Positions 1,440 through 54,314 of a stretch of 64,000 bases of DNA are shown here, in pieces. This DNA comes from Ignavibacteriota bacterium. Lineage in GTDB: Bacteria; Bacteroidota; Ignavibacteria; SZUA-365. The DNA is taken from contig JACRFB010000010.1 in NCBI GenBank assembly GCA_016218045.1, forward strand, positions 8,101 through 72,100. The letters run 5' to 3'. Every line of letters begins with the position of its first letter. Position 1 is the first letter of the stretch. The notes beneath the pieces were generated by a model. It had not been told where the DNA came from. It worked only from the letters and a program-made list of their open reading frames with translations, and searched no databases. The translations under genes were made by a program, and so were the position numbers.

Positions 1440-2276
1440 TCAGGACTCGCGGAACTCGAACGGCGCCGTATCGTCCGGTCGGGGCACGTCCGCCCAGTGA
1501 CCCGACGGATCCGATCCCCTGCACACGATGCTGTGCCGATTCCAGTCCCAGTACGCGCGCACCGACGGTGGACAGTAACGGAGCGTGAGACCGCAACGGC
1601 GCCTGTCCGACATGTTCGCACGCGATCCATGCACCAACAGATCGGAGTGAATGGAAATCTCTCCCGAGCGAAGCTGCACATCCTCGGGTTCGCCATAGTC
1701 CGCGATCGCATCGATGGCCTGTGTGAGGACGTTGTCTTCGTCTGGAGCCGTCTCGCGCCAGGGCAGATGGCCATGCAGATGCGAACCGGGCAGCACCCTC
1801 ATGCAGCCGTTGTCCGTATCAACATCATCGATCGCGAGCCACACGGTGACCGTCCGCGACGGTGTCAACGCCCAATACGAGCAGTCCTGATGCCAGGCGA
1901 CTTCGCGCGGATCACCGGGCAGTTTGCAGAAAAAGTGTGTGGCCCAGCAGATCACATCCGGTCCGATGAGGTCCGAAACAACATCGACGATGCGGGGATG
2001 TGTCGCGCAGTCGTGTATCATCGCGATACGGTCCTGATACCGGTCGATCGCATAGCTGTTGCGGCCGCTGCGCAGAAACGTTTCGAGAAGTTGATCAAAG
2101 CGTGTCCGCACATCCCGCATCTCGGATTCATTCAACGCGGGGAGACCCGCGAGGAAGCCGCGCTCATTGAAGCGATCCACGTCGGCGGCGCTCAGCACGC
2201 GGCCGTCCGCGGGATGTGCCGGGAAAAACCGCAGATCCCTCTCCAGAGCCGACACACGTCTGTCGTGTTCAGCCAT
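1440..2276 (-). CDS. PhyH-family (phytanoyl-CoA dioxygenase-like) Fe(II)/2-oxoglutarate-dependent oxygenase
   Basis: HxD...H facial triad context (WHQDCSYWAL ... MRVLPGSHLHGH). The start is taken at the internal ATG 2276 (MAEHDRR), which overlaps the upstream gene's stop by 8 nt (ATGGCTGA). The track ORF extends to 2411. Confidence 0.65.
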   Translation of the reverse strand: MAEHDRRVSALERDLRFFPAHPADGRVLSAADVDRFNERGFLAGLPALNESEMRDVRTRFDQLLETFLRSGRNSYAIDRYQDRIAMIHDCATHPRIVDVVSDLIGPDVICWATHFFCKLPGDPREVAWHQDCSYWALTPSRTVTVWLAIDDVDTDNGCMRVLPGSHLHGHLPWRETAPDEDNVLTQAIDAIADYGEPEDVQLRSGEISIHSDLLVHGSRANMSDRRRCGLTLRYCPPSVRAYWDWNRHSIVCRGSDPSGHWADVPRPDDTAPFEFRES

Positions 2277-3441
2277 GCCCGTGTCCATCGTACACGCAGG
2301 CGCGCGCCTCGTCGGCGAAGGCCCGCAGCAGGCGCGCTTCGGCGTGGAAGAAGTGATCGGACGGCGAGAGGATGTATGCCCCGTTTCCCCCTGCCTGTTG
2401 AAAGCAGGCACGCACCGCAGCCCGAGTTTCCTCCTCCGTGCATCCGGCGAAGTGGCGGTTCTGGTTGAAGCCCCCGATCATGCATGCGCGGCCGTCGATC
2501 CGCGACGCGGCTTCGGCCAGATCCACATCACCACCCATCTCTTCCGGTGTGAAGGTTTCTATCGCATCCGGCTTCATGGCCAGCACGAGGTCGAGCACCG
2601 GCATGATGCCGCCGCAGATGTGGTACACCACGCGTTGCCCCGCTTCATGCATGGCTTCGATGAGAGGCGCATCGTAGGGCGCGACAAACTCCTCGAAAAT
2701 TGCGGGCGAGATAACCGTGGCCGACGCGTCGCCGCCGCCAAGTTCGATCAGGTCGTATGGCGCGCCCTTCAGCGAACGTATCCAGCCGAGTTTTCGCCGC
2801 TGGAGGACTGCAAGGAATTCGTGCACCCAGACCGGGTCGTCGTAGGTCGCGAGAATCAGTTCCTCGATGCCGTATAACACCGCTGCATCCTGCCAGCAGC
2901 CCGGCTGTCCGTACACTTCAAAACCGGGGACGGCACCACGAAGCAGCGCATCTCCACGCCGCTCGCGCGCATACTGCCGTAGTTCCTCGACATCACAGCG
3001 CAACGCGGGCGCATGGCGGGCGAGCACGTCGATATCACGGCGAAGGCGTAGAGGACGTTCCGTCACCCAGGTGGTGTGCCTGTCGCTCTGCAGGACTGTG
3101 CGCAACGCGCCGCCGGGTGTCTCCACAACAACGGAGACCGTCGTATAGCGGTCGTGCGCGAGCGGCGTCTCGGTGATACGCCACGAATCGGAAAGGACAC
3201 GCCTCGCGGCGTAGGGGCCGGGATCGTGCGCTGGATCGAGGATTTCTCCATGATCCGCATCGGGCGAAAAAGCCGCGTGCCAGCGAACCGGATCGAGACC
3301 TGTCTCGCGCCAGAATCCATCTTCGTCGCGACCGCCTTCAAAGTCCGCAAGAAACGATGGCATGAGATGATGCGTCGTGGCGGGGAGCCGGTCGGGCGCC
3401 TTGCAATCGAGTGCCATGAGCAAGCGTTCACGCGAGGTCAT
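2269..3441 (-). CDS. Uroporphyrinogen-decarboxylase (URO-D) family zinc methyltransferase, MtaA/MtbA/CmuA-like (corrinoid:thiol or methyl-ether methyltransferase type)
   Basis: N-terminus RERLLMALDCKAPDRLP and overall URO-D-like architecture. Putative Zn ligands HxC (VVYHICGG) plus a downstream Cys (RACMIGG), as in MtaA rather than true HemE. ATGA start/stop overlap with the upstream gene at 3438-3441. Confidence 0.7.
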   Translation of the reverse strand: MTSRERLLMALDCKAPDRLPATTHHLMPSFLADFEGGRDEDGFWRETGLDPVRWHAAFSPDADHGEILDPAHDPGPYAARRVLSDSWRITETPLAHDRYTTVSVVVETPGGALRTVLQSDRHTTWVTERPLRLRRDIDVLARHAPALRCDVEELRQYARERRGDALLRGAVPGFEVYGQPGCWQDAAVLYGIEELILATYDDPVWVHEFLAVLQRRKLGWIRSLKGAPYDLIELGGGDASATVISPAIFEEFVAPYDAPLIEAMHEAGQRVVYHICGGIMPVLDLVLAMKPDAIETFTPEEMGGDVDLAEAASRIDGRACMIGGFNQNRHFAGCTEEETRAAVRACFQQAGGNGAYILSPSDHFFHAEARLLRAFADEARACVYDGHGHG

Positions 3442-4193
3442 ATCCGGTCTCCGCTGCTTTCCGCCTCATCCGTGGAGGGCGTGGATTCGACGCGGTACAT
3501 GCAGTCGAACGAGTCGCAGTCCGCACAGCCGTGCGGCAAAGACACCACGCCGGATCCCAGGCCGATGATGCCGGAGACCGATTTGATCGGTGACATCATC
3601 GACGACTCCGACAGCCGCACTCCGCAGTGTGCCCCCGCGAGCAGATCAAAAAGGACTCGTTGATCCGATACGGACCAGCCGCAATATCCGGGGCTGTAGC
3701 GGTTGGACGTCCCGCACTCCCGTCGCAGCGCTTCTTCCCGGACCATCTCATGCAGGGCGGCCGCGCACGCTTCCGCGAACACGGAGCCAACGGCGTCGAG
3801 AAGAAAGTGATCGAAGGGATCATGAGCGTGTGTTGTATTCTCGAGGGCCTCCTGAAACGCCGCGCCCGTGGTGGCAAGGAATACCGCGAGTTCGACGGCG
3901 CCTTCGAGCTGTGAGGTGATGCGGGGGCCGCAGGCGAATTCCTTTTCGTGGAGACCCACAATGCCCTGCATCGTGTTGATACGCGCGAGCGGCAGCACAC
4001 GCACCGCGGCGCGGGCGTTGCGGCCGAGGCCGTCGAGCCGCGCGCAGTGAGCATCGATGCCCTCGCGGATCACGTCGGGTGCGCCGCCCTCCGCGTATCC
4101 GAGTCGTCTTTCGACCTTTCCGTGTGTCACTACGTCGGCAACGCCCTGCGGGAAGAGGACGTGCACATCAAACTGCCGCGCCTCGCGGATCAT
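3438..4193 (-). CDS. Stand-alone methionine synthase (MetH) activation/reactivation domain protein (Met_synt_B12-like)
   Basis: About 250 aa protein. I attribute its similarity to the MetH C-terminal AdoMet-binding reactivation domain from sequence memory only (region ...RYSPGYCGWSVSDQRVLFDLL...). The start is taken at ATG 4193 (MIREARQ), which forms an ATGA overlap with the corrinoid-protein stop. The track ORF extends to 4217. Confidence 0.55.
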   Translation of the reverse strand: MIREARQFDVHVLFPQGVADVVTHGKVERRLGYAEGGAPDVIREGIDAHCARLDGLGRNARAAVRVLPLARINTMQGIVGLHEKEFACGPRITSQLEGAVELAVFLATTGAAFQEALENTTHAHDPFDHFLLDAVGSVFAEACAAALHEMVREEALRRECGTSNRYSPGYCGWSVSDQRVLFDLLAGAHCGVRLSESSMMSPIKSVSGIIGLGSGVVSLPHGCADCDSFDCMYRVESTPSTDEAESSGDRI

Positions 4194-4882
4194 ACCTCCG
4201 CCACAGGCGCGATACACGCGCGGAGAAAGTCGACGGCGCTCTGCGGATCCGCGCCATAGGCATCCGCGCCGATGGAGGCGGCGAAGGCGGCGGTCACGGG
4301 CGCTCCGCCGACGATGACGGGTGTGTTCGGAACCGCGGCGTGCACGGCGTCGACAACCTCGCGCATGTGCAGCATGGTGGTTGTGAGCAACGCGCTGACA
4401 CCGACGGCGCAGCCGGGATGCGCGCGCGCCGCTTCGGCAAAGGTCTCGGGCGGCACATCGGTTCCGAGATCGACCACCTCGTATCCCGCCCCGGTTGCAA
4501 TCATGGCGACGAGCTTTTTACCGATGTCGTGCAGGTCGCCGCGGACCGTCCCGATGACAAAGGTGCCGCGCTGCAGAATGTCGTGGGCGCGGAAGTGCGG
4601 TTCGAGATGCGCCATACCCGCGGCCATGGCGCGGGCGGCCAACAGCACGTCGGGCACAAAAACGCGTTTGTCGCGAAACAGCTCTCCGATGCGCGCCATG
4701 CCGGGAATCAATCCCTCGTCGAGCACACGCTGCGGCGGGATGGCGTGTGCCTCGAGCGCGCGCCTCGTCAATTCGTCGGCCCCGTCCTGCCCGCGCAAAT
4801 CGGGCGGATGTGGTGAGGCGGCGTCGCGTTTCCCGCGTTCAACGCATAGTGCAAGGGCTTCGAGAAGTTGCCTGTCGTCCAT
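4190..4882 (-). CDS. Corrinoid (cobalamin-binding) protein, MtaC/MtbC-like: N-terminal helical cap plus a Rossmann-like B12-binding domain
   Basis: DxHxxG B12-binding signature GDLHDIGKKLV, followed by G-rich Rossmann segments (AMIATGAGYEVVDLG, VGVSALLTTT). The start is probably ATG 4882 (MDDRQLLEAL); the track ORF runs to 4912. Confidence 0.7.
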   Translation of the reverse strand: MDDRQLLEALALCVERGKRDAASPHPPDLRGQDGADELTRRALEAHAIPPQRVLDEGLIPGMARIGELFRDKRVFVPDVLLAARAMAAGMAHLEPHFRAHDILQRGTFVIGTVRGDLHDIGKKLVAMIATGAGYEVVDLGTDVPPETFAEAARAHPGCAVGVSALLTTTMLHMREVVDAVHAAVPNTPVIVGGAPVTAAFAASIGADAYGADPQSAVDFLRACIAPVAEV

Positions 4883-4942
4883 GAGAAAAAAGATACTGCG
4901 CGCACGGTTCATTTGGGAATCATCCGTCGCGGTATCCTGGCG

Positions 4943-34622: not shown

Positions 34623-35741
34623 TCAACGCACGACGAGCAGACGGCTTTCCGCGTGCACGAGGTTGCCGGACACGAAACGGCACATGTATGCGCCCGAAGG
34701 AAGCGGCGGCAGCGGCATGGACGTCATCCCGGCGGCGACCTGCCACCGTCCGACCTCGCGACCATACAGATCCGAAAGCAGCAGCTCGCCCTGCCCGCTT
34801 CCATCGAGGGCGATGGTCGCGATCGAACCGACCCGCACGGGCGTGGGATACACGTCGAGCCGTGTCTGATGTTCGGTGATCCCGGCTTCGCTGATCGCGG
34901 ACGGACCATCCGTCGCTCTGCGGCTTGCGGAATTGATCACGGCACGCTTCTTTGCATCGGCGTCGTAATACGACACGAAGGCAACGACGTCAAGCGCCTC
35001 GATGTTCCATGCGGCTGCGAGCGGAATGTTCTGGAATGTGTACGTGTACGTCCCTGTGCCGGGTGCGGAGGGAAACACACCCGTCAGCCCCCACGCGCCC
35101 GAAGGAACCGCCCGAAGCACGCGTTTGTGTGAATATCCGACAATCGGATCGCCTTTCTTGTAATAAGGATGACCCGGCGTCCCGTTGAAATAATTCGTCT
35201 GATCGTACCCCTTCCCGACGCCGCTCACGCTGTCTTCCACGATGTACAGATTCAGGCGCAGATCGCCCGGCGCAGGAGCGCTCACAAACTGTATCACGAC
35301 GGTGCACGAGATGCTGCGCGCGGAGCGGTTCAACGTGTTCTGCAGCGTGATGGCGGTTACCGGAGCGTCACCGAGATGCGCGGTGCAGACCGAATCCCAC
35401 TTCTGGCGCGACACCGCGATGAAGGGCGGCCGTGTGTACACGGGGATGGGATGGTCGCCGCGGTCGATGCAGGCGCCTGGCGCAAAATCTGTAAACGCCG
35501 ATGCGATGGCCTTGCTCTCCGCCACGGTCATCGAATCGGTTCCGAAACCCGCATGATGGGTGACCCAGATGACCTGCGGATGATCAGCCACCAGCTTCTC
35601 CGCAATCACATCGCCGTCGGGACAAAAACCGCAGGGCGCTGTCGAGAACTCCTCGAGCAGGATACGCTTCACAGGGCCCTGCGCGTTCATCTTCCACACA
35701 CAAAGAAGCGCGACCAGGACGAGGAATAGGACGTTTTTCAT
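34623..35741 (-). CDS. Secreted protein with an N-terminal thioredoxin-like/Omp28-like domain (CGFCP) and a T9SS C-terminal sorting domain
   Basis: Signal peptide; CxxC motif CGFCPDG; C-terminal VYPTPVRVGS...LLLSDLYGREVGRW...GAYMCRFVSGN resembles the T9SS CTD. Confidence 0.5.
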   Translation of the reverse strand: MKNVLFLVLVALLCVWKMNAQGPVKRILLEEFSTAPCGFCPDGDVIAEKLVADHPQVIWVTHHAGFGTDSMTVAESKAIASAFTDFAPGACIDRGDHPIPVYTRPPFIAVSRQKWDSVCTAHLGDAPVTAITLQNTLNRSARSISCTVVIQFVSAPAPGDLRLNLYIVEDSVSGVGKGYDQTNYFNGTPGHPYYKKGDPIVGYSHKRVLRAVPSGAWGLTGVFPSAPGTGTYTYTFQNIPLAAAWNIEALDVVAFVSYYDADAKKRAVINSASRRATDGPSAISEAGITEHQTRLDVYPTPVRVGSIATIALDGSGQGELLLSDLYGREVGRWQVAAGMTSMPLPPLPSGAYMCRFVSGNLVHAESRLLVVR

Positions 35742-42142: not shown

Positions 42143-42182
42143 CAGACCAAAAGAAAAGGCCGCGATGAACATCATCGCGGCC
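42143..42182 (-). terminator. Rho-independent terminator downstream of ccmF
   Basis: Minus strand: ggccgcgatg-atgtt-catcgcggcc followed by TTTTCTTTTGG, 25 nt after the ccmF stop. Confidence 0.6.
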
Positions 42183-42206
42183 TGGGGAGAAAAGGTGGGA
42201 TTGCGG

Positions 42207-44879
42207 TCAGGTCTGCTGTTGTTCCTCGGGCACGACGTCTTCCTGTGCGGGTGCTACAGTCCGGGCGCTGCCAAGTGGCAGCCCGGGGCGGGACGGAGCC
42301 TCGAGACGTTTGGCATCCTTTGCACGTCGCGCGCGCGCGATTCCGAAGCCGACAATCATGACCACAATGCCGAGCCAGACAAGGGAGATAAAGGGCTTCA
42401 GCGATGCCTCGACGACGAGGGTTTCACGCAGGTCGTTCGGGTTGGGTGTGACCTTCGGATTGCGCATGCGCGCGTCGACGGTCGAGAGAGCCAGATCCTC
42501 GCGATTGGGCGTGAGCGCGTCTATCACGATCTCGAGATCTCCGGCGCTGACGCGCGCGGGGGTGTCCTGCACACCGTCTGGTCCCGTTGTGTGTGTCACC
42601 GTGAACTCCTGCGGCGGCTGCCCGTACTTCTCCACGCGGAAAACGCCGCCGATGGTAAAGGCCTGCGACGCCGCGCTGTTGTTCATGTCGAAGTCTACGA
42701 AGTGAATCGTGTACCCGCCGTACTCGATTGACATGCCTTTCGTAAACTGTGCCGCCTGCCAGCCGTCGGGATCCGGTGCAAAAAGCGCCTGCGGTTCCAG
42801 GTAAACATCCTTGAACCAGAACTTGGCGATGCCGGGATTACGCATGAGCTGCTTCTGTCCGCCGTACATCGAGTTGAACATGACTGTCTTCACCGTGTCG
42901 ATCACATCGCCGTCGGCATTGGTCATCGCCACTTTGAAGTAAAACCGCTCGCCGTTCCAGAACGGTTCGTATCCGGTGTAGGTGAGGTTGTATCCGAAGG
43001 CGGACTTCGACACACCCTGCGGCAATTCGATGGACTGCGTGCGGCTCATAAATCCGGATCCAATGACACCGAGCAGCGTGAAGGCCACGCCAAGATGTGC
43101 AACATAGGCGCCCGTAAATTTCGGATTGCCGCGCACGATGGTGTAGCCCACCTGCGCATTGACAACGACACTGAAGAACGCCGAGCAACCGAGCGCCAGC
43201 ATCCATACGTCGTTCACTCCGCCGGCCAGCCAGATCACCGCGGCGAACGCCAAAGCCAGGGCACCGGGCAGTATGGCCTTGCGCAGCACTTCGCCCTTGT
43301 TGTTCTGTATCCACTTCAGCAGCAGTGCCGACGCGGCCATGCCCACGATGAGAATTCCGAGCGGCACGCCCATCGCGTTGTAAAACGACGGATCAACCGT
43401 GTTGCCCAGCGTCGCGTCCGATCCTATGCCCGCAAGCATATCGTTGATGGAAGCGATGATCGACTGGGGAATGATGGGCAGCGAGGTGCCGAGCAGCACG
43501 ATGAGGGTGAAGATACCGAGTACTGCGGAACCGAGCCCGAGGAATGTTTCGCGTGACATCAAACGGAAACTCGTGTACTCCTTCTCGCTGTGCATGCGGC
43601 CGGTCATCGTGTAAATGATGAATGCCAGCTTCAGGACCAGTGCGACGGGCCAGAGCGGCGCGACGGCATTCAGGAGATGCGCCGTCCACAGCAGGGGAAA
43701 CACAAAAATGTCCACCACCGCGGGCACGTTCGCGATCACGTCCTCGAAGACGGGCACAATGTCGCCGCCGACGATGGCAAAGATGGGAATGCTGGGGCCG
43801 ATCGCGACGAGATACACGATCCCGAGCCGTTTCCAGCCGCTGAAACGCGTGGCCAATGCCTGCCCGAGTTTGGTGAAACGCAGGAAGATGAACGCCACGC
43901 CCGTGTCGGTGAACGCGAACATAAAAAGCACGAGCAGTGTAAACGCGAAGCGCCCCGGATCCACGAAAGAGTGCACGGATGCGTCGCCCAGAACGCCGCT
44001 GCGTGTCAGGAAGGTGGAGTACAGCACAGTGACGAAACTGAGTATGGCGAGGAGGAAGTTCGTCATGATGAGTCCCTTCGTCCGTTTCTGCGTCAGCATC
44101 GTGTGGACGAGCGCAACGGAAACAAGCCACGGGATCAACGAAGAATTTTCGACGGGATCCCAACCCCACCAGCCGCCCCAGCCGAGCGTCTCATACGCCC
44201 AGAATCCGCCTAGTGCAATGCCGAGACCCAGCACCATGGCGCCGCCGACCACCCAGGGCAGCGAACTCGTAATCCAGTCCTGATACTTCTTCTGCATCAG
44301 CGCACCCATCGCCAGTGCAAAGGGCGGAGCCATCGAGGCAAAACCGAGGAAAAGTATCGGCGGATGTATCTGCATCCAAAAATTCTGCAGGAGCGGATTG
44401 AGGCCCTTTCCGTCGGCGGGAATCTGCGATCCTTCCACAAGCGCGAAAGGATTCTTCACCACGATAAGCAGCATCAGAAATGCGAGCACCGCGGTGTAGG
44501 TCCCCATAACCTCCCGCTCGTTGTTGTGTTTCTGCGTGTAGGCCAGCAGCACGATACCGATGATCGAAACCATCAGCGTCCACAGCAGAAAGCTTCCTTC
44601 CTGGCCCGCGTAGAATGTGGACATCAACAGGCCGAGCGGCAGTTCGCGGGAGCTGTATGCCCAGACGTAGTGGTACTGGAACTGGTGTTTGACGATGAGC
44701 ACGAGCAGTGCCGCCGATGCCAGAAACACCGATGTCGTCGTGAGATGAAAACCGGCGCGTCCCAGATGAATCAGGGATTCACGGCGGAGCGAGGCAAAAT
44801 AAGCGAAGCATGCAACCGCCGTGGCGATGAATCCGCCCACGACGGCAACGCGCCCGATCATGCCGACTGCTTCGTACAT
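42207..44879 (-). CDS. ccmF: Cytochrome c-type biogenesis protein CcmF (heme lyase/heme handling, System I)
   Basis: Tryptophan-rich WWD motif LGWGGWWGWDPVENSSLIPW; polytopic; followed by a periplasmic domain and a final TM. Confidence 0.85.
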   Translation of the reverse strand: MYEAVGMIGRVAVVGGFIATAVACFAYFASLRRESLIHLGRAGFHLTTTSVFLASAALLVLIVKHQFQYHYVWAYSSRELPLGLLMSTFYAGQEGSFLLWTLMVSIIGIVLLAYTQKHNNEREVMGTYTAVLAFLMLLIVVKNPFALVEGSQIPADGKGLNPLLQNFWMQIHPPILFLGFASMAPPFALAMGALMQKKYQDWITSSLPWVVGGAMVLGLGIALGGFWAYETLGWGGWWGWDPVENSSLIPWLVSVALVHTMLTQKRTKGLIMTNFLLAILSFVTVLYSTFLTRSGVLGDASVHSFVDPGRFAFTLLVLFMFAFTDTGVAFIFLRFTKLGQALATRFSGWKRLGIVYLVAIGPSIPIFAIVGGDIVPVFEDVIANVPAVVDIFVFPLLWTAHLLNAVAPLWPVALVLKLAFIIYTMTGRMHSEKEYTSFRLMSRETFLGLGSAVLGIFTLIVLLGTSLPIIPQSIIASINDMLAGIGSDATLGNTVDPSFYNAMGVPLGILIVGMAASALLLKWIQNNKGEVLRKAILPGALALAFAAVIWLAGGVNDVWMLALGCSAFFSVVVNAQVGYTIVRGNPKFTGAYVAHLGVAFTLLGVIGSGFMSRTQSIELPQGVSKSAFGYNLTYTGYEPFWNGERFYFKVAMTNADGDVIDTVKTVMFNSMYGGQKQLMRNPGIAKFWFKDVYLEPQALFAPDPDGWQAAQFTKGMSIEYGGYTIHFVDFDMNNSAASQAFTIGGVFRVEKYGQPPQEFTVTHTTGPDGVQDTPARVSAGDLEIVIDALTPNREDLALSTVDARMRNPKVTPNPNDLRETLVVEASLKPFISLVWLGIVVMIVGFGIARARRAKDAKRLEAPSRPGLPLGSARTVAPAQEDVVPEEQQQT

Positions 44880-44917: not shown

Positions 44918-45325
44918 CTACAGCGAGGTTCGCGGAATATTGTCAGGATGGGCGTCGGCGGGCTTGCCCTCATACTTCGAGGGACATTTTGTCAGGACTT
45001 CACTCGCGTGAAAGGCACCCTGCTCGTACCGGCCTTTTGCGACGATGCTCGTCGCGATATCGAAATTGTTCGGTTTCCCGCCGGTGAGCACCACCTTCGC
45101 GACACGGTTTTCCTCGTCGCGCATGTAGAATGTGAAGGTGTGCGCCTTGCTGTCGTAGCGCGCGTCCATCTCCTTCACCCACTTGCCGGTGACCTGCACC
45201 TTTTTGCCCGAATTCTCGGCCTTGCTGATGGTGGCGTACTCGATGGAGCTGTTCAGGAACGAGTATCCGCCGACAGCGAGAAAGATCAGCACGACCAGTC
45301 CGCCGATGATATACCGTTTTTTCAT
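44918..45325 (-). CDS. ccmE: Cytochrome c maturation heme chaperone CcmE, variant with CxxxY in place of HxxxY
   Basis: N-terminal membrane anchor, OB-fold region, and C-terminal flexible motif LTKCPSKYEG aligned to E. coli LAKHDENY. Confidence 0.8.
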   Translation of the reverse strand: MKKRYIIGGLVVLIFLAVGGYSFLNSSIEYATISKAENSGKKVQVTGKWVKEMDARYDSKAHTFTFYMRDEENRVAKVVLTGGKPNNFDIATSIVAKGRYEQGAFHASEVLTKCPSKYEGKPADAHPDNIPRTSL

Positions 45326-45343: not shown

Positions 45344-45466
45344 TTAATCTTCAAGCTTCTTCACGGCTCTGTCGATACGCCACACGTATCCGAAGAGACC
45401 TGCCCACACCATCAGAACGATAATGAGGACGACGTAGAGCGAGTTGTGTTCCAGAAATTCGTACAT
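45344..45466 (-). CDS. ccmD: 40-aa CcmD-like small membrane protein, below the ORF-track size cutoff
   Basis: Translated by hand: MYEFLEHNSLYVVLIIVLMVWAGLFGYVWRIDRAVKKLED*. One TM helix plus a basic C-tail, lying between ccmC and ccmE exactly where ccmD sits in System I operons. Confidence 0.45.
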   Translation of the reverse strand: MYEFLEHNSLYVVLIIVLMVWAGLFGYVWRIDRAVKKLED

Positions 45467-45535: not shown

Positions 45536-46489
45536 TCAGGACTGTCCCGGCGTCCGTGCAAGTGAGATGCGGTACAGACTGAATCGGATGCGCATCAGCC
45601 ACCCGTACAGCACGAGATACCCGAGCAGTAGTCCGTACAGAACCACACGCATGGTGGCGTCCATACCCCCGGAACTGACGACGGGCCCCGAAGTTGTGTC
45701 GTCGGCGGAACCGGGATGGAGGCCCGGCATGATGCGGGGCATGATGAAAATGAAGAACGGCACGGTGACGGCGGCCAGGATGCTGTACACGGCGCTCAGA
45801 CTGGCGCGTTTTTCCTCGACCTCGATGGCGGAGCGCAGCGCGAAATAGGCGCCGTACACGAGCAGCAGCACAAAGATCGATGTCTCGCGGGGATCCCAGT
45901 TCCAGAATGATCCCCAGTTGAATTTTGCCCACACGGATCCGGTTGTGGTGGCGAGGATGCAGAACAGGAGCCCGAGTCCGGCCGAAATTGCCGACTTGGC
46001 GTCGTCATCCATCTGTTTCCTGCGCAGATACTTGATGCCGAACCACATGGACACGAGGAAGGCGATCACGGTGAGCCACGACATGGGCACATGGAAAAAG
46101 ATGATTTTGGCGCGTTCCTCCAGGCCCGGAATAAAGGGGAAGGTCAGACCCGGATCGGTCGCGAGAATGCGCGAGACGGCGACGCGATGCCGCGCCGCAT
46201 CGTAGCGCGCGAGCACGAGGTAGCCGGTCGCGGCATCCAGATCCGCGGGCCTGGCCGCAAAAGCGACCGGCGACTCGAGTCCGTGCCCATCGGTTGCCTT
46301 CAGAACAAAGGCACCGTCGGCATCGGGCTCGGCGGATTTTGCGCCGAGAGTAAGCTTCAGCGGGATTTCCTTTTCGGGGGACATCTGCGCGTACATCGCG
46401 AGGTCGCCGAACGTGCCGGCAACAGGCGTGATGATGCCGAAGACACTGAACACGGCAATCCAGATGAACAGGAGAATTTTCCACCACAT
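45536..46489 (-). CDS. ccmC: Heme exporter protein CcmC, with an extended first periplasmic loop
   Basis: WWD motif WGSFWNWDPRET, conserved His in IIFFHVPMSW. The start is taken at ATG 46489 (MWWKILLF); the track ORF extends further 5'. Confidence 0.8.
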   Translation of the reverse strand: MWWKILLFIWIAVFSVFGIITPVAGTFGDLAMYAQMSPEKEIPLKLTLGAKSAEPDADGAFVLKATDGHGLESPVAFAARPADLDAATGYLVLARYDAARHRVAVSRILATDPGLTFPFIPGLEERAKIIFFHVPMSWLTVIAFLVSMWFGIKYLRRKQMDDDAKSAISAGLGLLFCILATTTGSVWAKFNWGSFWNWDPRETSIFVLLLVYGAYFALRSAIEVEEKRASLSAVYSILAAVTVPFFIFIMPRIMPGLHPGSADDTTSGPVVSSGGMDATMRVVLYGLLLGYLVLYGWLMRIRFSLYRISLARTPGQS

Positions 46490-46506: not shown

Positions 46507-47202
46507 TTACTCTTTCCAGACAAAATCGAACAGAAGATACGACGCCGTGACCACCACGGCACAATACGACACAAGCAATTGCAGATCGGGCCAGGCCTCA
46601 TTCCATGTGTTCCCTTCTATTGCCGTTTTTGTGGCGGAGATTCCCGCCATGAGCAGGGGCAGAAGGATCGGGAATGAGAGAACGGGAAACAGCGTACCCT
46701 TGGTGTTCGCCTTCGCGATGATGGCGGCAATGATGGTTGTAGCGGCGGCTGTCGCGACACTGCCGAGGGCAATGACCGCGAGGAACAAACCCGGCTGATT
46801 GACACGGATCTCGGGCAGGAACACAAGGAAGAGCGCGACAATAAACGCGTTGAGCACAAGCGACAGTACCACGTTGAACAGCAGCTTTCCGAGATACACG
46901 GAACTCGGACTGCACAAAAGCTGCAGCGCCAGCGACGTGCCGCGCTCCTCTTCCGCGACGAAGGAGCGCGAGAGTCCGCTCATCGCCGCAAAAAACATGA
47001 CCACCCACAGGAGACCCGCGTGTACGGCCCGCCCCAGGGTCTCGCCGGCAAGTGCAAAAAGAATGACGGCAATCGCGACTACCACGAACATGAACAGCGC
47101 GTTGACGGCGTAGCGCGTGCGCAATTCCGAGCGCACGTCCTTCGCGAAGACGGCGGAAGCCCCGCGGCGCAGACTCACCGGGACACCCCGGCGGCAGACC
47201 AT
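46507..47202 (-). CDS. ccmB: Heme exporter membrane protein CcmB
   Basis: Six-TM protein; N-terminal region aligns with E. coli CcmB (…ELRTRYAVNALFMFVVVAIAVILF vs …LELRVAFRHSAEIANPLWFFLIVITLF). Confidence 0.75.
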   Translation of the reverse strand: MVCRRGVPVSLRRGASAVFAKDVRSELRTRYAVNALFMFVVVAIAVILFALAGETLGRAVHAGLLWVVMFFAAMSGLSRSFVAEEERGTSLALQLLCSPSSVYLGKLLFNVVLSLVLNAFIVALFLVFLPEIRVNQPGLFLAVIALGSVATAAATTIIAAIIAKANTKGTLFPVLSFPILLPLLMAGISATKTAIEGNTWNEAWPDLQLLVSYCAVVVTASYLLFDFVWKE

Positions 47203-47366: not shown

Positions 47367-50300
47367 TTACTTCAGGAAACCGGCAATCAGTGCGAGGAGC
47401 TGTTCGCGCTGAAAGGGTTTCGGAAGGTACTCGTTGCACCCCGCGTCAAAGCAGCGCTGGCGGTCCGCCGGAAAGGCGTGCGCGGTCAACGCGATGATGG
47501 GGAGGGTCGAGAACCGGGCCTCCGTACGCAGCGACTGCGTGAACTGCAGCCCGTCCATGTCTCCGTGCAGGGAGATGTCCATCAGAATAATGTCGATGCG
47601 CTGCGCGTTCAGGATCTCGAGCGCCTGCGGAGCCGACGAGGCGACACGTACATTGTAGTGTCGCGAAAGGAGCAGCGACATGTACTGCTGGCTCTGGATG
47701 TCGTCCTCCACCACAAGCACGCAACGCGCCGCCGCGTCGTGCGCATTGCGCGCGGAATTTTCGCCCGAGGCGGAGTCGCCCGCGATGGAGCCGCTGCCCG
47801 CATCGAGCGGGAAGAATAGGGTGCACACGGTTCCGTGTCCTTTGTGACTGTCTATCGATATCATGCCCTTGCTCACTTCCACGTAATGGCGTGTCAGTGC
47901 CATGCCGAGTCCCAGCCCCTCGAAGGGCCGCGTTGTGCCCGAAGATTCCTGGGAGAATTTTTCGAATATTCTCGGGAGGTATTCATCCGATATTCCGATT
48001 CCCGAGTCGGCTACGTCGATGCGCGCCCACGCATCCTCGATGGCGACACTGATGATGACGTTTCCCCGCTCCGTGAATTTAATGGCGTTGTCGAGCAGGT
48101 TTATCAGGGCCTGCTCAAGTGTGTAGCGATCGACGGTCGAGAACGCCGCGAGACAGGTGCTCTCGTGTTTCAGCGCGACCCCCTTTGCCTCGGCAATCGG
48201 CCGCATGTCGGTGGCGAGCGACTCGGCGACGTCGACGAGGTTGACGGTTTCGAAACGCGGTGTGTATGTGCCGGCCTGTATGCTTGAAATGTTCAGGATT
48301 TGCTCGACTGTGCGCAGGAGGCGGCGGCCGGAGCGCTCGATGGTGCGGAAAAATATGAGGTGTTCGGCATCGATGCGGTCGCGGTACATCTCGGAGATCA
48401 AATCCATGAATCCGATGATCACATTCAGCGGCGTGCGGATCTCGTGCGACATGTTGGCGATGAAGATATCCTTCAGTTGATGCGACTTCTCGGCGCTCTC
48501 CTTTGCCGCGATCAGCGCGTCCTTCGCCTCGCGGCGCAGTGTCACGTCGTTCGCCACGCTCAGTATGCCGGGTGAACCGTCGGGCAATGTCATGGCGGTT
48601 TCGCGCAGTTCCATCCAGCAGGTGCTGCCGTCCTTGCGAATGTTCATCACCTCGTGCTCCATCACCTCGCCGGCGATGATGCGGGCCGCGTGTCCGTCGA
48701 TGAGATGGTGTTCATCTGGAGGGACGACGATGCGGATGTTCTTCCCGATAAGTTCCTCCCTGCCGTAGCCGAACGCCGCGCTCAACGAGGGATTGATGTC
48801 GAGTATCGTCCCGTGCGCGTCTTCCACGATGATCCCCGAGGGAGAGAGGTCGAAAAGAGCCCGGTAACGACGTTCGTTTTCGCGCAGCGTCTGCTCGGCG
48901 GATTTCCACGCGGTCACGTCGGTCATCATGCCGACCATGCGTGAGTGTTTCCCGTCGATGGGATCGAGGAAAAATCCCCTGTCGAGGAACCACACCCAGG
49001 CGCCGGACTTGTGACGGAAACGGTACTCCACTTCGTAGGCGGAACCGGCCTCCTCCGCTTGTGATAAAAGCAGGAGCGACAGCTCGCGATCCTCAGGGTG
49101 GATCAGGTCGGACCACTGCGCGATCCCCGCGTTCATTTCCTCGAGCGAGTAGCCAAGGACGGTATCGATGGATCCGCCCCATTGAATTGCGCCGCTCTGA
49201 ACATCATAATCGTACACGATCTGCCCCGAGGCTGCGGTGACGCTTTCATAGAGGGTTTTCCAGCGTTCGATTTCCCGCTCGGCGGCGGTGCGATCGGTGA
49301 CGTCACGCGCAATAGCGAGGCGCGGTCCTAGTTCGAGGTCCTCCGCGGGCATGGGAACAACCAGCGTCTCGTACACACGGGCGCCGACGCGGCTTATTCT
49401 GCCGGTCCGCACATCGTTGTCCGCTCCCGAAAAAAGGGTCCGCAGCGAATTCTCCGCCTCCGCGTCCCCGCCGCGGGGAAGCAGGGATTCCCATTTGCGG
49501 CCGATTGCCATCTCGGGTGTCAGCCCGATAATCGCCGCGCCGACACCGTTGCAGTACGAGAGCACTTCATCCGCGTCGACAATAAATATTCCGTCAGGCG
49601 CGGCTTCTGCCAGCGTACGATAGCGTTCCTCGCTGCGGCGCAGGGCGTGCTCCGCCATGCGTCGCCCGGTGATGTCGCGCGCGAAGCCGACGAATTCGAT
49701 GGGTTTCCCCGTCTCGTCGCGTTCGATGTTGACCGTGACATCGGCCCAGAGCACGCTCCCGTCCTTGCGCATATACCGTTTCTCGAAGCGTGTCGACGAG
49801 CGTCCCTCCGTCATCATCGCATGCATCAACATCTCCTCGCGTGCGATATCGTCGGGATGTGTGAAATCGTAGGGGGTCATGCTCGACAATTCGCTCTGCG
49901 AATAGCCCGTCAATGCGGCGAACGCGGCATTGGTCTCGCAAATGCGGTACGCGCCGTCGACGCGCACAAAGCCGACCGCGGAATCCTCGTACACGCCGCG
50001 GTACTTCTCCATGCCGCGCTGCAAGTCGGCGTATTTCTCACATTCCACGCTGATATCGGTGAGCACGGCAACGAGCTGAACGGGCCGGCCATCCGCCGAT
50101 GCGGTGGTGAGGCATCGTTCACGCAGCATGGCCGGGAGTCCGCAGCCCGGAGCTGTGGCGAATTCGATCAGGGTGTTGCCCGGAGTCGAAAGAGCCGAGC
50201 GCACAAGGTCGAGTGTCGTGGCGAGTGCATCAGGGTGGACGATGGCTCTGTGGAGCAGATCCGCGTCAAGGTGGTTTCCGTCAACGCCGAGGGCGGTCCG

Positions 50301-50528
50301 CAACGCGGCACTCATCGACGCGACTCGATTCTCCCGCAAGTCCACGACATACACCAAGTCACCGAGTGCTTCGAGAACGGTTGCAAAATCCACGGTCGCC
50401 AAGGCATCGCTGTGCCCGCGCTCCTCGTCGGTTGGGTGTTCAGTGCCCGCGCTGCGGTTGTGTCGAAAGGCCATCGTGATAGGTGGTCCGTCAGTGCAAT
50501 GATGGAGTTGCGCGCCGGGGCGCAACAC
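47367..50528 (-). CDS. Hybrid sensor histidine kinase/response regulator with multiple PAS domains (PAS x about 5, then HisKA, HATPase_c and REC)
   Basis: Repeated PAS blocks (e.g. ...RFRHKSGAWVWF..., ...IRKDGSTCWMELRE...), H-box NMSHEIRTPLN, GLGLGMAL G-box, C-terminal receiver CVLVVEDD...DIILMDISL. A possible alternative start is at 50474 (MAFRH). Confidence 0.8.
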   Translation of the reverse strand: MLRPGAQLHHCTDGPPITMAFRHNRSAGTEHPTDEERGHSDALATVDFATVLEALGDLVYVVDLRENRVASMSAALRTALGVDGNHLDADLLHRAIVHPDALATTLDLVRSALSTPGNTLIEFATAPGCGLPAMLRERCLTTASADGRPVQLVAVLTDISVECEKYADLQRGMEKYRGVYEDSAVGFVRVDGAYRICETNAAFAALTGYSQSELSSMTPYDFTHPDDIAREEMLMHAMMTEGRSSTRFEKRYMRKDGSVLWADVTVNIERDETGKPIEFVGFARDITGRRMAEHALRRSEERYRTLAEAAPDGIFIVDADEVLSYCNGVGAAIIGLTPEMAIGRKWESLLPRGGDAEAENSLRTLFSGADNDVRTGRISRVGARVYETLVVPMPAEDLELGPRLAIARDVTDRTAAEREIERWKTLYESVTAASGQIVYDYDVQSGAIQWGGSIDTVLGYSLEEMNAGIAQWSDLIHPEDRELSLLLLSQAEEAGSAYEVEYRFRHKSGAWVWFLDRGFFLDPIDGKHSRMVGMMTDVTAWKSAEQTLRENERRYRALFDLSPSGIIVEDAHGTILDINPSLSAAFGYGREELIGKNIRIVVPPDEHHLIDGHAARIIAGEVMEHEVMNIRKDGSTCWMELRETAMTLPDGSPGILSVANDVTLRREAKDALIAAKESAEKSHQLKDIFIANMSHEIRTPLNVIIGFMDLISEMYRDRIDAEHLIFFRTIERSGRRLLRTVEQILNISSIQAGTYTPRFETVNLVDVAESLATDMRPIAEAKGVALKHESTCLAAFSTVDRYTLEQALINLLDNAIKFTERGNVIISVAIEDAWARIDVADSGIGISDEYLPRIFEKFSQESSGTTRPFEGLGLGMALTRHYVEVSKGMISIDSHKGHGTVCTLFFPLDAGSGSIAGDSASGENSARNAHDAAARCVLVVEDDIQSQQYMSLLLSRHYNVRVASSAPQALEILNAQRIDIILMDISLHGDMDGLQFTQSLRTEARFSTLPIIALTAHAFPADRQRCFDAGCNEYLPKPFQREQLLALIAGFLK

Positions 50529-50672: not shown

Positions 50673-51284
50673 TCAGCCGAGCCGCACGATGCGGTCGCAC
50701 TGGTCCACGTCGGACTGATCGTTCGAGGCGATGATCACACATCCCTGCTTTCGCTGGCGGGACACGATCGCATACACGGCGGCTATCCCGTCGGCATCAA
50801 GATTCGAAATCGGTTCGTCAAGAAGAAGGAAGGACGGGTTGTGTATCGTCGCGAAGAGCAGCTTCATGCGCTGTTTCATGCCGGAGGAAAATGCGCGGAT
50901 CGGATCCTTGCGTCCTGGAGGCAGGCCCACTCCCTCGATGCGCGCGCGTAGATCATCGCGCGAGAGCCGCAGTCCGCGCGCATCGGCGTAAAACGCCAGG
51001 TTCTCCTCAGCGCTGAATTCGTCGAACAACTGCAGATACGGGGCCACGAATCCGAGATGCTCGTGCAGGACCTCCATCGGAAGTGTCACACCGTCGCGCG
51101 TGTATTCCACACTCCCGGAGTTCGGCTGCAACAGCCCCGCAATAATTTTGAGCAATGTGGACTTCCCCGACCCGTTGCGGCCCGTAATGCCGACCACTTC
51201 CCCGGCGGACACATCGAACGACACATCGTTCAGGATGCGCGAGCGGTGAAATGACTTTGTGATGTTCCTAACCGCGATCTGCAC
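50673..51284 (-). CDS. ccmA: Short ABC ATPase, CcmA-like (heme exporter ATP-binding protein)
   Basis: 203 aa, Walker A GRNGSGKST, signature-like FSSGMKQR, Walker B LLLDEP. Size and architecture match CcmA, but the call rests mainly on proximity to ccmBCDEF. Confidence 0.65.
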   Translation of the reverse strand: MQIAVRNITKSFHRSRILNDVSFDVSAGEVVGITGRNGSGKSTLLKIIAGLLQPNSGSVEYTRDGVTLPMEVLHEHLGFVAPYLQLFDEFSAEENLAFYADARGLRLSRDDLRARIEGVGLPPGRKDPIRAFSSGMKQRMKLLFATIHNPSFLLLDEPISNLDADGIAAVYAIVSRQRKQGCVIIASNDQSDVDQCDRIVRLG

Positions 51285-51287
51285 GGA

Positions 51288-53012
51288 TCACCTGCGCACG
51301 ATGACAAATTTACCGCTGTGCATCGTGCCGCCAACATTCAACACAAACACGTAGATACCCGACGCGGCATTCTCACCCGCATCGTCGCGGCCGTTCCAGG
51401 CGATGTACCGCCCAAACGTGGGATCACCAAGTATGGCGGCATCCTCGAGCAGCGCGATTCTGTTCATGCTTCCCGTAAAGATCGCAAGCGTGCCGCGCGT
51501 CTGCGGCACGCTGTTCGGCACCGAGACGCGCGCTATGCCGTCACCGGCGGGATCGTACGGATTCGGCGAGAAATAGACTTTTCGATCCGGTATGGCTCCT
51601 TTTGAGTACACGTTCAGGCACAACATGCCGGGGCTTGCGGGAAGGAAGCGGTACCCCCACCCGTTGCCCACCGGCAGATATTCGGCGCCGTATCCGCTGG
51701 TGCGTATGTCGATGGTGAACTGCACGGGGGCACCCCCGCCCCCTGTCGCCGCCTGCACGGCGGCCGTGAGATTCACCTGCGAGACCGAGAATGCCGCGGT
51801 GTCGGCATCCATGGCGGCGCGCATGTACACGGTGGCATAGGGCGAGACCGCGCCCGACAGTGTCGCGCTGCCGTTTGTGACCGCGATGGTTGAAGCGATC
51901 TTTACGGTGGGATACGATGCGGCCTCGTCATACCGTTCCGACGGCGCGGCGTCCGCGGCCCTGTAGCCCGTGTAAAAATTCCAGCGCGCAAAGGCGCAGT
52001 ACTCGATCGAGAGATCGCTCGGATCCGTGCTCGCGCGCAAGGCGTCGTCGAGCGCGAAGTACGGGTGCCGCGAGCGGATCCCCTCCCAGGTCCGGCGCAT
52101 CAGCGTCGTGTCGTGGCGGCGTTCGAGCATTTTCGGCAGAAGGACGAGAGGATACCCGTAGGCGCCCCACGCGTGTATCGAACGTTCGGGGAATGTAAAC
52201 AGCCCGCTGCTGCCGCCGAGGTACTGGTAATAATCGTTGACGTCGGGATACACCTCGTCCTCATAATAGACAGACGTCAGTTCGTGTATGTAGCGGTCGT
52301 CGAGCAAGAGCCCGTAACTTCCCATCTGAATCATATGGTGGAACTCGTGTGCCGCGGTGACTTTGGCGCCCTCGAGTCCCTTCGAAAAATATCCGCCAGC
52401 AAAATCGTTGTCGATCTCAATAAACGACGTGAATATTGGCTGCACGGTCGTGGATGGGATACGATCGACCCATTGCGTATTGCCGTAATCGGACCCCACG
52501 TTGCGGAGGAAGATGTTGTACGTATTCTGCCCCGCTTCGAACGGCGGTGCCTGATAGCCGCGTTGCAGCACTTCCACCACATAGGTGTGATCAAAGAATG
52601 CCGCCACGGCCTCCGCGTATGCGCGCGATGTGCCGCGGATTGGCGTCTCCGTCGCATCGATCATCGCGGCCATGTGCGTACCACTTGTGTCGTAATGGAT
52701 GCGGAAACGTCCGGAAGGACTGAGGAGCGACATGTCGTACGTGGCCGGCGCAAGCAGGCGGCGCATTGTGGCACGGTCCGCCGGCGACATGGTTTCTGCG
52801 CGGCGCGCGGTTTCGATGGTCCAGCCGAAACCGCATCCCGGCACAATACGCTGCTGGAGCGTGTTGCCCGGCGCGCGGCCCGAACGATATTCCGCGAGGC
52901 GCTGAAGGAACTCGGCGTCGCTGAGCGCGCGCAGATCGATGTCCTGCGCGCTAGTCCAGATCGGCGCGATGAACACGAGCACAAGGGCGGAAAGTGAACG
53001 TCGCGTTTTCAT
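51288..53012 (-). CDS. Secreted zinc metalloprotease-like protein (HExxH) with a T9SS C-terminal sorting domain
   Basis: Signal peptide; AAHEFHHMIQ (HExxH). C-terminal KVYFSPNPYDPAGDG...ASGIYVFVLNVGG...GKFVIVRR is CTD-like. Confidence 0.6.
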   Translation of the reverse strand: MKTRRSLSALVLVFIAPIWTSAQDIDLRALSDAEFLQRLAEYRSGRAPGNTLQQRIVPGCGFGWTIETARRAETMSPADRATMRRLLAPATYDMSLLSPSGRFRIHYDTSGTHMAAMIDATETPIRGTSRAYAEAVAAFFDHTYVVEVLQRGYQAPPFEAGQNTYNIFLRNVGSDYGNTQWVDRIPSTTVQPIFTSFIEIDNDFAGGYFSKGLEGAKVTAAHEFHHMIQMGSYGLLLDDRYIHELTSVYYEDEVYPDVNDYYQYLGGSSGLFTFPERSIHAWGAYGYPLVLLPKMLERRHDTTLMRRTWEGIRSRHPYFALDDALRASTDPSDLSIEYCAFARWNFYTGYRAADAAPSERYDEAASYPTVKIASTIAVTNGSATLSGAVSPYATVYMRAAMDADTAAFSVSQVNLTAAVQAATGGGGAPVQFTIDIRTSGYGAEYLPVGNGWGYRFLPASPGMLCLNVYSKGAIPDRKVYFSPNPYDPAGDGIARVSVPNSVPQTRGTLAIFTGSMNRIALLEDAAILGDPTFGRYIAWNGRDDAGENAASGIYVFVLNVGGTMHSGKFVIVRR

Positions 53013-53537: not shown

Positions 53538-54314
53538 TCACTTCGGGCGCGCGTTGCTCCGCGTTTCGGCGGGCAGGTCGGCCCGCAGTGCCGCGACATC
53601 GTCGCGAAGCGGACTCGTGGGGTACTTCTCCAGAAACTGTGTGATGCGGTCGCCTGCCGCGGCATATTGTTTGCGCGAGATAAGCGCGCGGATTTTCATC
53701 GCCGCGGCGTCGTCGACGTACTCGGTGCTGTAATACTTGTCGATCACCGTATCGAAGTACACTTCGGCCGCGCGCGCGTTTTCGAGTTTCATGTACAGCA
53801 GGCCCGTGCGATACTCTTTCTCGGCGAGGCGGTTGATGAGGCCCAGCATGTCCTTCTCCGCGTCCGCCGCCTTGGGGTGCTTCGGATTCGTTTCGATAAA
53901 GGTCTGAAGCGCATCGATCGCGCGCATCGTGTAGGTCTGATCGAGCGCGGCCTTGGGCGACAGTTCCACATAACACCGCGCGTACATGTACTGGGCCTCG
54001 GTCTGCAGCGCGGGTGAGGAACTCACCTGTCCGATCTGGCTGAACTCGTAGCTGGCAAGTATGTACTCCTCACGATTGAAGCGGCTCATGCCCATGAAGA
54101 ATCTGGCGCTGTCGGCCACAGGGCTGGTGGGATACTGCAGACGAATCACCTCGAAGTGCTGTATCGCGTCGAAATAATCCTCGTCGGCATACTCGGCCAT
54201 GCCGAGCCGGAAGCGCTGCTCGGCCGTGGGGATATCGGCGGGTGTTGTCGAACTGCAGGCAGCGCAACACACCGCGAGAACCGCGGCTGCGACGATAGGA
54301 AGGGTGCGTGACAT
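53538..54314 (-). CDS. bamD: Outer membrane protein assembly factor BamD (TPR lipoprotein, YfiO family)
   Basis: Lipobox AVCCAACS; TPR-like helical repeats (…YADEDYFDAIQHFEVIRLQYPTSP…, …EKEYRTGLLYMKLENARAAEVYFDTV…). Confidence 0.7.
   Translation of the reverse strand: MSRTLPIVAAAVLAVCCAACSSTTPADIPTAEQRFRLGMAEYADEDYFDAIQHFEVIRLQYPTSPVADSARFFMGMSRFNREEYILASYEFSQIGQVSSSPALQTEAQYMYARCYVELSPKAALDQTYTMRAIDALQTFIETNPKHPKAADAEKDMLGLINRLAEKEYRTGLLYMKLENARAAEVYFDTVIDKYYSTEYVDDAAAMKIRALISRKQYAAAGDRITQFLEKYPTSPLRDDVAALRADLPAETRSNARPK

Follow-up and report, generated by a model that had tools for sequence, protein, structure and literature searches.

Does a CcmE protein that carries a cysteine where E. 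coli has its haem-binding histidine act as the haem chaperone of a cytochrome c maturation system, and can such a system work without CcmH? The question is raised by a ccm gene cluster in the window, that is to say the whole 64-kb stretch of DNA from an Ignavibacteriota MAG analyzed here, for which an earlier note had proposed a ccmE gene (44918..45325, minus strand) with a CxxxY haem-binding motif and with no ccmG or ccmH nearby. Our analysis indicates that the protein is very probably a functional Cys-type CcmE, which acts in the periplasm as haem chaperone to the System I*-type CcmABCDEF machinery of this Ignavibacteriota bacterium.

Membership of the 135-aa product of this reading frame in the CcmE family is confirmed by sequence, profile, fold and gene order. 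The protein matches Pfam CcmE (PF03100) with 57 bits (cut-off 24.6, E 2.7e-15) and falls far under the cut-offs of the NCBIfam equivalog CcmE models, derived as these are from proteobacterial proteins of the His type. Its architecture comprises an N-terminal membrane anchor (residues 6-24, the hydropathy peak), a periplasmic OB barrel (29-113) and a flexible C-terminal tail from residue 114. The AlphaFold model (pLDDT 83) presents a helix at residues 2-26, strands over 29-113 and a low-confidence or disordered tail beginning at the haem-binding motif, and the top Foldseek matches of this model in the PDB are the CcmE structures 8CE8_E, 1LM0, 1J6Q, 1SR3 and 2KCT.

Inspection of the C-terminus (...FHASEVLTKCPSKYEGKPADAHPDNIPRTSL) reveals the haem-binding motif LTKCPSKYEG by direct reading of the sequence (44966..44995, minus strand), with C114 encoded at 44984-44986 and the tyrosine at Y118, so that an [H/C]xxxY motif directly follows the last strand. 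A profile of 19 CcmE homologues (A1), searched against PDB sequences, has the Cys-type CcmE of D. vulgaris (2KCT) as its best match, followed by E. coli CcmE. In the profile alignment the segment 'evltkcpskyeg' lies opposite 'EVLAKHDENYTP' of E. coli CcmE (1SR3, 8CE8_E), and C114-P-S-K-Y118 aligns to H130-D-E-N-Y134. The equivalence that the earlier note had claimed between this motif and E. coli LAKHDENY (H130-x3-Y134) is thereby borne out exactly, with C114 at the place of H130 and Y118 at that of Y134. Residues L111-Y118 are invariant across the 19 sequences and neither H106 nor H126 is conserved, so no histidine from the tail has shifted into the haem position. The HxxxY motif of canonical System I is absent from the window CcmE, which has a cysteine at the aligned position and no conserved histidine in its tail.

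The partners of CcmE are encoded around it on the minus strand. Upstream lie ccmB (46507..47202; 231 aa; Pfam CcmB PF03379, 66 bits), a long form of ccmC (45536..46489; 317 aa from the ATG; Pfam Cytochrom_C_asm and NCBIfam ccmC) and ccmD (45344..45466; 40 aa), the last belonging to the alternative CcmD family (NCBIfam TIGR04391 CcmD_alt_fam, 33.4 bits against a cut-off of 24; Pfam CcmD_alt). Downstream lies ccmF (42207..44879; 890 aa), which matches Pfam Cytochrom_C_asm and CcmF_C and aligns to T. thermophilus CcmF (6ZMQ). The products of ccmB to ccmF are the same in a second assembly of this organism, whose genes were called independently. The candidate for ccmA (50673..51284, minus strand) encodes a 203-aa ABC ATPase that matches Pfam ABC_tran and scores 117 bits with NCBIfam CcmA (TIGR01189), just below the cut-off of 131.6. 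H133, the WWD motif at 192-204 and H258 of CcmC match H60, the WWD motif and H184 of E. coli CcmC (7F02), and in CcmF the four histidines H172, H259, H303 and H595 and the WWD motif at 234-245 line up with T. thermophilus CcmF and are invariant in 30 homologues. The System I* set of CcmA, B, C, D, E and F is thus present with its catalytic residues kept, ccmA being assigned by synteny and by its near-cut-off score. As a matter of annotation, many close CcmF homologues are inconsistently named in NCBI, appearing as 'cytochrome c biogenesis protein CcsA' or 'hypothetical protein'.

Comparison with 80 related loci, each with a flank of up to 10 kb per side, places this cluster in a recurrent context. 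The common order is bamD, an FG-GAP protein, an HExxH metalloprotease and then ccmA-B-C-D-E-F, an order of ccm genes kept in dozens of related genomes with ccmE between ccmD and ccmF; ccmD is present in 67 of the 80. The metalloprotease of the window, of the MXAN_6640 family, is encoded directly 5' of ccmA (51288-53012, minus strand), and its C-terminus resembles a T9SS sorting tail by eye. Its place 5' of ccmA is conserved in 36 related loci, and at loci where ccmA has left ccmB (L018, L023, L049, L064) the metalloprotease gene has remained with ccmA. Elsewhere in the window, next to ftsZ, three adjacent genes (2269-4912, minus strand) look like a corrinoid methyltransferase set, encoding a URO-D/MtaA-like protein, a protein with a Met_synt_B12 activation domain and a B12-binding protein.

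One gene of the window departs from this arrangement. A hybrid histidine kinase/response regulator of 1053 aa (47367..50528, minus strand; multiple Pfam PAS families, HisKA, HATPase_c and Response_reg) splits ccmA from ccmB and is not a Ccm protein. Among the related loci, 46 carry ccmA, which mostly adjoins ccmB; none of the 46 has a gene between the two, and the pair abuts or overlaps in the closest relatives of the window locus. A mobile insertion was considered as the origin of the kinase gene and rejected, as no flanking repeats were found. Given the sub-threshold score of ccmA and the 3.2 kb of kinase gene that precede ccmB, it is not certain that the whole set is co-expressed.

To what extent is such a CcmE a peculiarity of this genome? 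NCBI files the identical protein as 'cytochrome c maturation protein CcmE' from an Ignavibacteriae bacterium, which upholds the placement of the DNA in the FCB group that the earlier note had assumed; the Ignavibacteriota belong to that group, and the T9SS sorting tails and the Bacteroidetes-type FtsL encoded in the window agree with it. Every one of the best 120 homologues carries the Cys-type motif, as CPSKY in 119 and CPSRY in one. When each GTDB species was represented by one genome, LTKCPSKY relatives turned up in at least 569 of the species genomes, and the labels of the best 80 among these are nearly all Ignavibacteria, Bacteroidota, Kryptoniota or Kapaibacterium, with a few others. Among representatives of 50%-identity clusters, 949 clusters match the window CcmE at E <= 1e-3; the best 150 of these, which reach down to ~33% identity, comprise 143 of Cys type and none of His type, the remaining seven being mostly truncated or without the motif.

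These counts need to be read beside what was known. System I* was defined by Allen et al. 2006, as later papers report it, by a Cys-type CcmE that often occurs without CcmH. The earlier note had described it as a small group of archaea and Desulfovibrio-like bacteria, a description that is too narrow, since the carriers of the Cys-type variant named by Stevens et al. 2011 (PMC3601427) already include delta-proteobacteria, Chloroflexi and Firmicutes; there, CPSKY is the majority CcmE motif, in 25 of 36 bacterial genomes. The note's suggestion that the locus extends the variant to a new lineage stands relative to the literature, where no publication on Cys-type CcmE in either Bacteroidetes or Ignavibacteria came to light in our searches, and falls relative to the databases, which already hold hundreds of FCB genomes with the protein annotated as CcmE. 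In sequence, the window CcmE is a classic member of System I*, and it comes from a phylum that neither PMC3601427 nor PMC9084895 names. It is ordinary for its lineage, a known variant and not a new one, abundant and automatically annotated in databases. On these counts, the Cys-type haem chaperone pathway is the standard route of cytochrome c maturation over a large section of the FCB group that is abundant in the environment and comprises Ignavibacteria, Kapaibacteria, Kryptoniota and numerous MAGs with a Bacteroidota label. It is no curiosity limited to archaea and sulfate reducers.

On the model of E. coli and Desulfovibrio, the CcmABCDEF machinery could operate as follows. CcmC, through H133, H258 and its WWD motif, would present haem at the outer face of the membrane together with CcmD. 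CcmE, held by its one-helix anchor, would bind this haem covalently through C114, presumably in a thioether linkage, and Y118 would serve as the axial ligand. Holo-CcmE would then be released by the CcmAB ATPase, and CcmF, with its WWD motif and four conserved histidines, would take the haem and pass it to the CxxCH motifs of apocytochromes. Every residue that this scheme needs is present and conserved in the CcmC, CcmE and CcmF sequences. As for substrates, no c-type cytochrome gene was found within the 64-kb window; in Melioribacter roseus, a cultured member of the phylum, CcmF was seen in the proteome alongside c-type cytochrome complexes (PMC5492636).

Attachment of haem to C114, and function without CcmH, are inferred from better-studied systems. 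In M. acetivorans the cysteine of the CXXXY motif of CcmE is required (PMC9084895), and the Cys-type CcmE of D. desulfuricans binds haem covalently (PMC3601427). According to the account of Goddard 2010 given in PMC3601427, cytochromes c are matured in E. coli by the D. desulfuricans operon even when CcmH and CcmG are missing. Two questions are put to the field by PMC3601427, namely how haem transfer overcomes the stable thioether of CcmE and by what means CcmF acts when CcmH is absent. In this lineage CcmC comes in a long and a short form, CcmF is long and additional CcmE-like modules occur, and comparing these natural variants could make both questions more tractable.

Among the alternatives, the one that survives best accepts the Cys-type CcmE and holds that the system is not streamlined, such that CcmH and/or a CcmG-like thioredoxin with CcdA, encoded elsewhere, work with the cluster. 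We regard this as plausible, although we lean against it; the earlier note had itself allowed, reasonably, for ccmG and ccmH at another place in the genome. The ccm operon itself contains no ccmG, ccmH or ccdA. The earlier note had reported a terminator at the end of ccmF and neither ccmG nor ccmH beyond it, which agrees with our reading: an intrinsic terminator-like hairpin (42157..42183, minus strand; 12 pairs, 8 of them G-C, then TTTTCTTTTGG) closes the cluster 24 nt 3' of ccmF, and the next gene encodes an unrelated protein with a T9SS tail. Nothing of the CcmH or CcmG kind was found in the 64-kb window, which argues against this alternative. Thioredoxin-like, CcmH and CcdA families matched none of the ~35 window genes run against Pfam and NCBIfam, with ~20 housekeeping genes (dcw cluster, secDF) lying outside the Pfam run, and a motif scan for CcmH-like or WCxxC patterns in window ORFs of at least 60 aa returned spurious frames only. 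Nothing related to Ccm occurs in the short Logan contigs beyond the window edges. A CcmH-like RCxxC protein is likewise encoded in none of the 80 related loci, including their flanks of up to 10 kb per side.

Other observations favor components encoded elsewhere. About one third of bacteria with a Cys-type CcmE do have CcmH (Stevens et al. 2011, PMC3601427), and for this reason the absence of CcmH, which the earlier note had taken as a System I* trait, is frequent in such systems without being diagnostic of them. Clusters in this lineage are also sometimes split, with ccmF not beside ccmE in 11 of the 80 related loci and ccmA away from ccmB in some. Furthermore, a TlpA-like thioredoxin is encoded directly 3' of ccmF in four of the 70 related loci that hold ccmF, a position at which the window has none. 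The product in those four (L031:3102-3740, L034:4650-5291, L037:8491-9093 and L054:12773-13387) is a Redoxin/AhpC-TSA lipoprotein of ~200 aa with the sequence FWGTWCPPC, a candidate for a CcmG/TlpA-like protein. Taken together, these four relatives and the occasional splitting of the cluster make a CcmG-like reductase elsewhere in the Ignavibacteriota source genome quite possible, while for CcmH elsewhere in that genome we would allow roughly one chance in three. The cysteines of CcmA to CcmF are isolated and none of these proteins contains a CxxC motif, which implies that the reduction of apocytochrome thiols is supplied by genes elsewhere or is not needed.

Several proteins encoded near the cluster were considered for these roles and set aside. 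The 574-aa protein encoded 5' of ccmA (51288-53012), a candidate substitute for CcmH or CcmI, contains no CxxC motif and scores above cut-off with the MXAN_6640 model for HExxH metalloproteases. The BamD/YfiO TPR protein (53538-54314), considered as CcmI-like, matches YfiO. An Omp28-like protein with a CGFC motif (34623-35741), encoded 6.5 kb beyond the ccm terminator and considered as a CcmG-like thioredoxin, matches only the Omp28 lipoprotein family, below cut-off, and carries a T9SS tail.

A further reading of the streamlined Cys-type system concerns what might stand in for the missing components. Inspection of CcmC reveals an insertion of ~91 aa in periplasmic loop 1 (46145..46417, minus strand), just before the haem-ligand histidine. 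A profile of this insertion (A4) aligns by hhalign to the CcmE profile A1 over 78 columns with a probability of 91.4% and an E-value of 9e-7. Its score is 39.7, whereas 40 column shuffles gave no more than 15.6 and negative-control segments of CcmF gave 7-20. The position of C114 is occupied by an aspartate, so that the haem-binding Cys or His is missing; the insertion has no single-sequence Pfam match, and its profile has no match in a search against the PDB. From these alignments, the insertion is probably a CcmE-like OB domain that lacks the haem-binding residue. CcmC occurs in the clade as a short form of ~225-250 aa and a long form of ~317-373 aa, the latter in 23 of 71 sequences (those of 70 related loci plus the window).

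CcmF is enlarged as well: all over the clade it measures 755-908 aa, whereas the E. coli and Thermus proteins have ~650. In the window its additional parts are a set of helices at residues ~335-442 (43554-43877, minus strand), specific to the window's sub-clade, and a beta-rich periplasmic domain of ~215 aa at residues 613-829 (42393-43043, minus strand), common to the whole clade. The AlphaFold model of CcmF (pLDDT 81) has 6ZMQ as its only significant fold match in the PDB. A resemblance of either part to CcmE was rejected, as hhalign gives a probability of at most 4% and the sole significant fold match is CcmF.

A third element occurs in related genomes. Eleven related loci (L022:10385-10738, and L017, L025, L028, L030, L032, L035, L036, L043, L047 and L057) encode, between ccmE and ccmF, a membrane-anchored CcmE paralogue of 117-135 aa, which is not present in the window. 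It has an invariant GHVHG, ends in ...GHVHGG..YFHATQVY and lacks the C/HxxxY haem-binding tail; hhalign relates it to CcmE with a probability of 90.5%, and the three members scanned have no Pfam match. On the strength of the OB domain in CcmC, the tail-less CcmE paralogue in sister clades and the enlarged CcmF, one could propose that the System I* of Ignavibacteriota and the FCB group is a distinct sub-type in which CcmE-derived OB modules and the larger CcmF replace CcmH and CcmI, namely in the substrate or chaperone handling that these carry out elsewhere. As part of this proposal, the PAS-rich kinase encoded between ccmA and ccmB may place the machinery of this genome under redox or haem control. 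We hold the proposal to be unlikely, yet such accessory CcmE-like modules could shed light on how System I* copes when CcmH is missing.

Could the cluster instead encode a dedicated haem lyase for one special substrate, like NrfEFG, or a second system beside System II? Such a role is suggested by the unusual length of CcmF and by its best NCBIfam matches, which are NrfE models, but the NrfE score is 264 bits against a cut-off of 927, and neither nrfF, nrfG nor nrfA is a neighbor. The full ccmABCDE set, and the retention of the same cluster across the clade beside housekeeping genes such as bamD, also argue against it, and we consider it very improbable. The idea of a non-CcmE OB-fold protein, raised in the earlier note, or of a CcmE decayed by a disabling His-to-Cys mutation, could draw on the low equivalog scores and on weak single-sequence PDB matches, but its probability is negligible in view of the Pfam and fold matches to CcmE, a CPSKY motif that hundreds of homologues share without change and that is evidently under purifying selection, and the exact syntenic position between ccmD and ccmF.

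The Cys-type CcmE chaperone pathway that we favor can be placed among three known systems. Relative to E. coli System I, the window CcmE (compared with 1SR3 and 8CE8_E) shares the transmembrane anchor, the OB barrel, the flexible tail and a tyrosine four residues after the haem-binding residue, and the CcmC, CcmD and CcmF partners are the same. It differs in the replacement of His130 by Cys114 and in an operon without ccmG and ccmH; histidine and cysteine are not interchangeable in either type of CcmE (PMC3601427, PMC9084895). The archaeal CcmABCEF of Methanosarcina acetivorans (PMC9084895) resembles the window system in its CXXXY CcmE and in genes that are not all contiguous; it has no CcmH or CcmI, and none was found in the window cluster. 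In contrast, the archaeal system is without CcmD and has CcmF split in two genes, whereas the window encodes CcmD and a single long CcmF.

System I* of D. desulfuricans and D. vulgaris (CcmE 2KCT) shares with the window the cysteine in place of histidine, a C-terminal TKCP... sequence, the presence of CcmD and an operon without ccmG and ccmH. The two CcmE proteins are ~20-25% identical over the OB domain and belong to different phyla, the window to Ignavibacteriota. The window cluster further differs in the 'alt' CcmD, the 890-aa CcmF and the extra periplasmic domain of ~90 aa in CcmC, and no CcmI-like TPR gene was seen in it.
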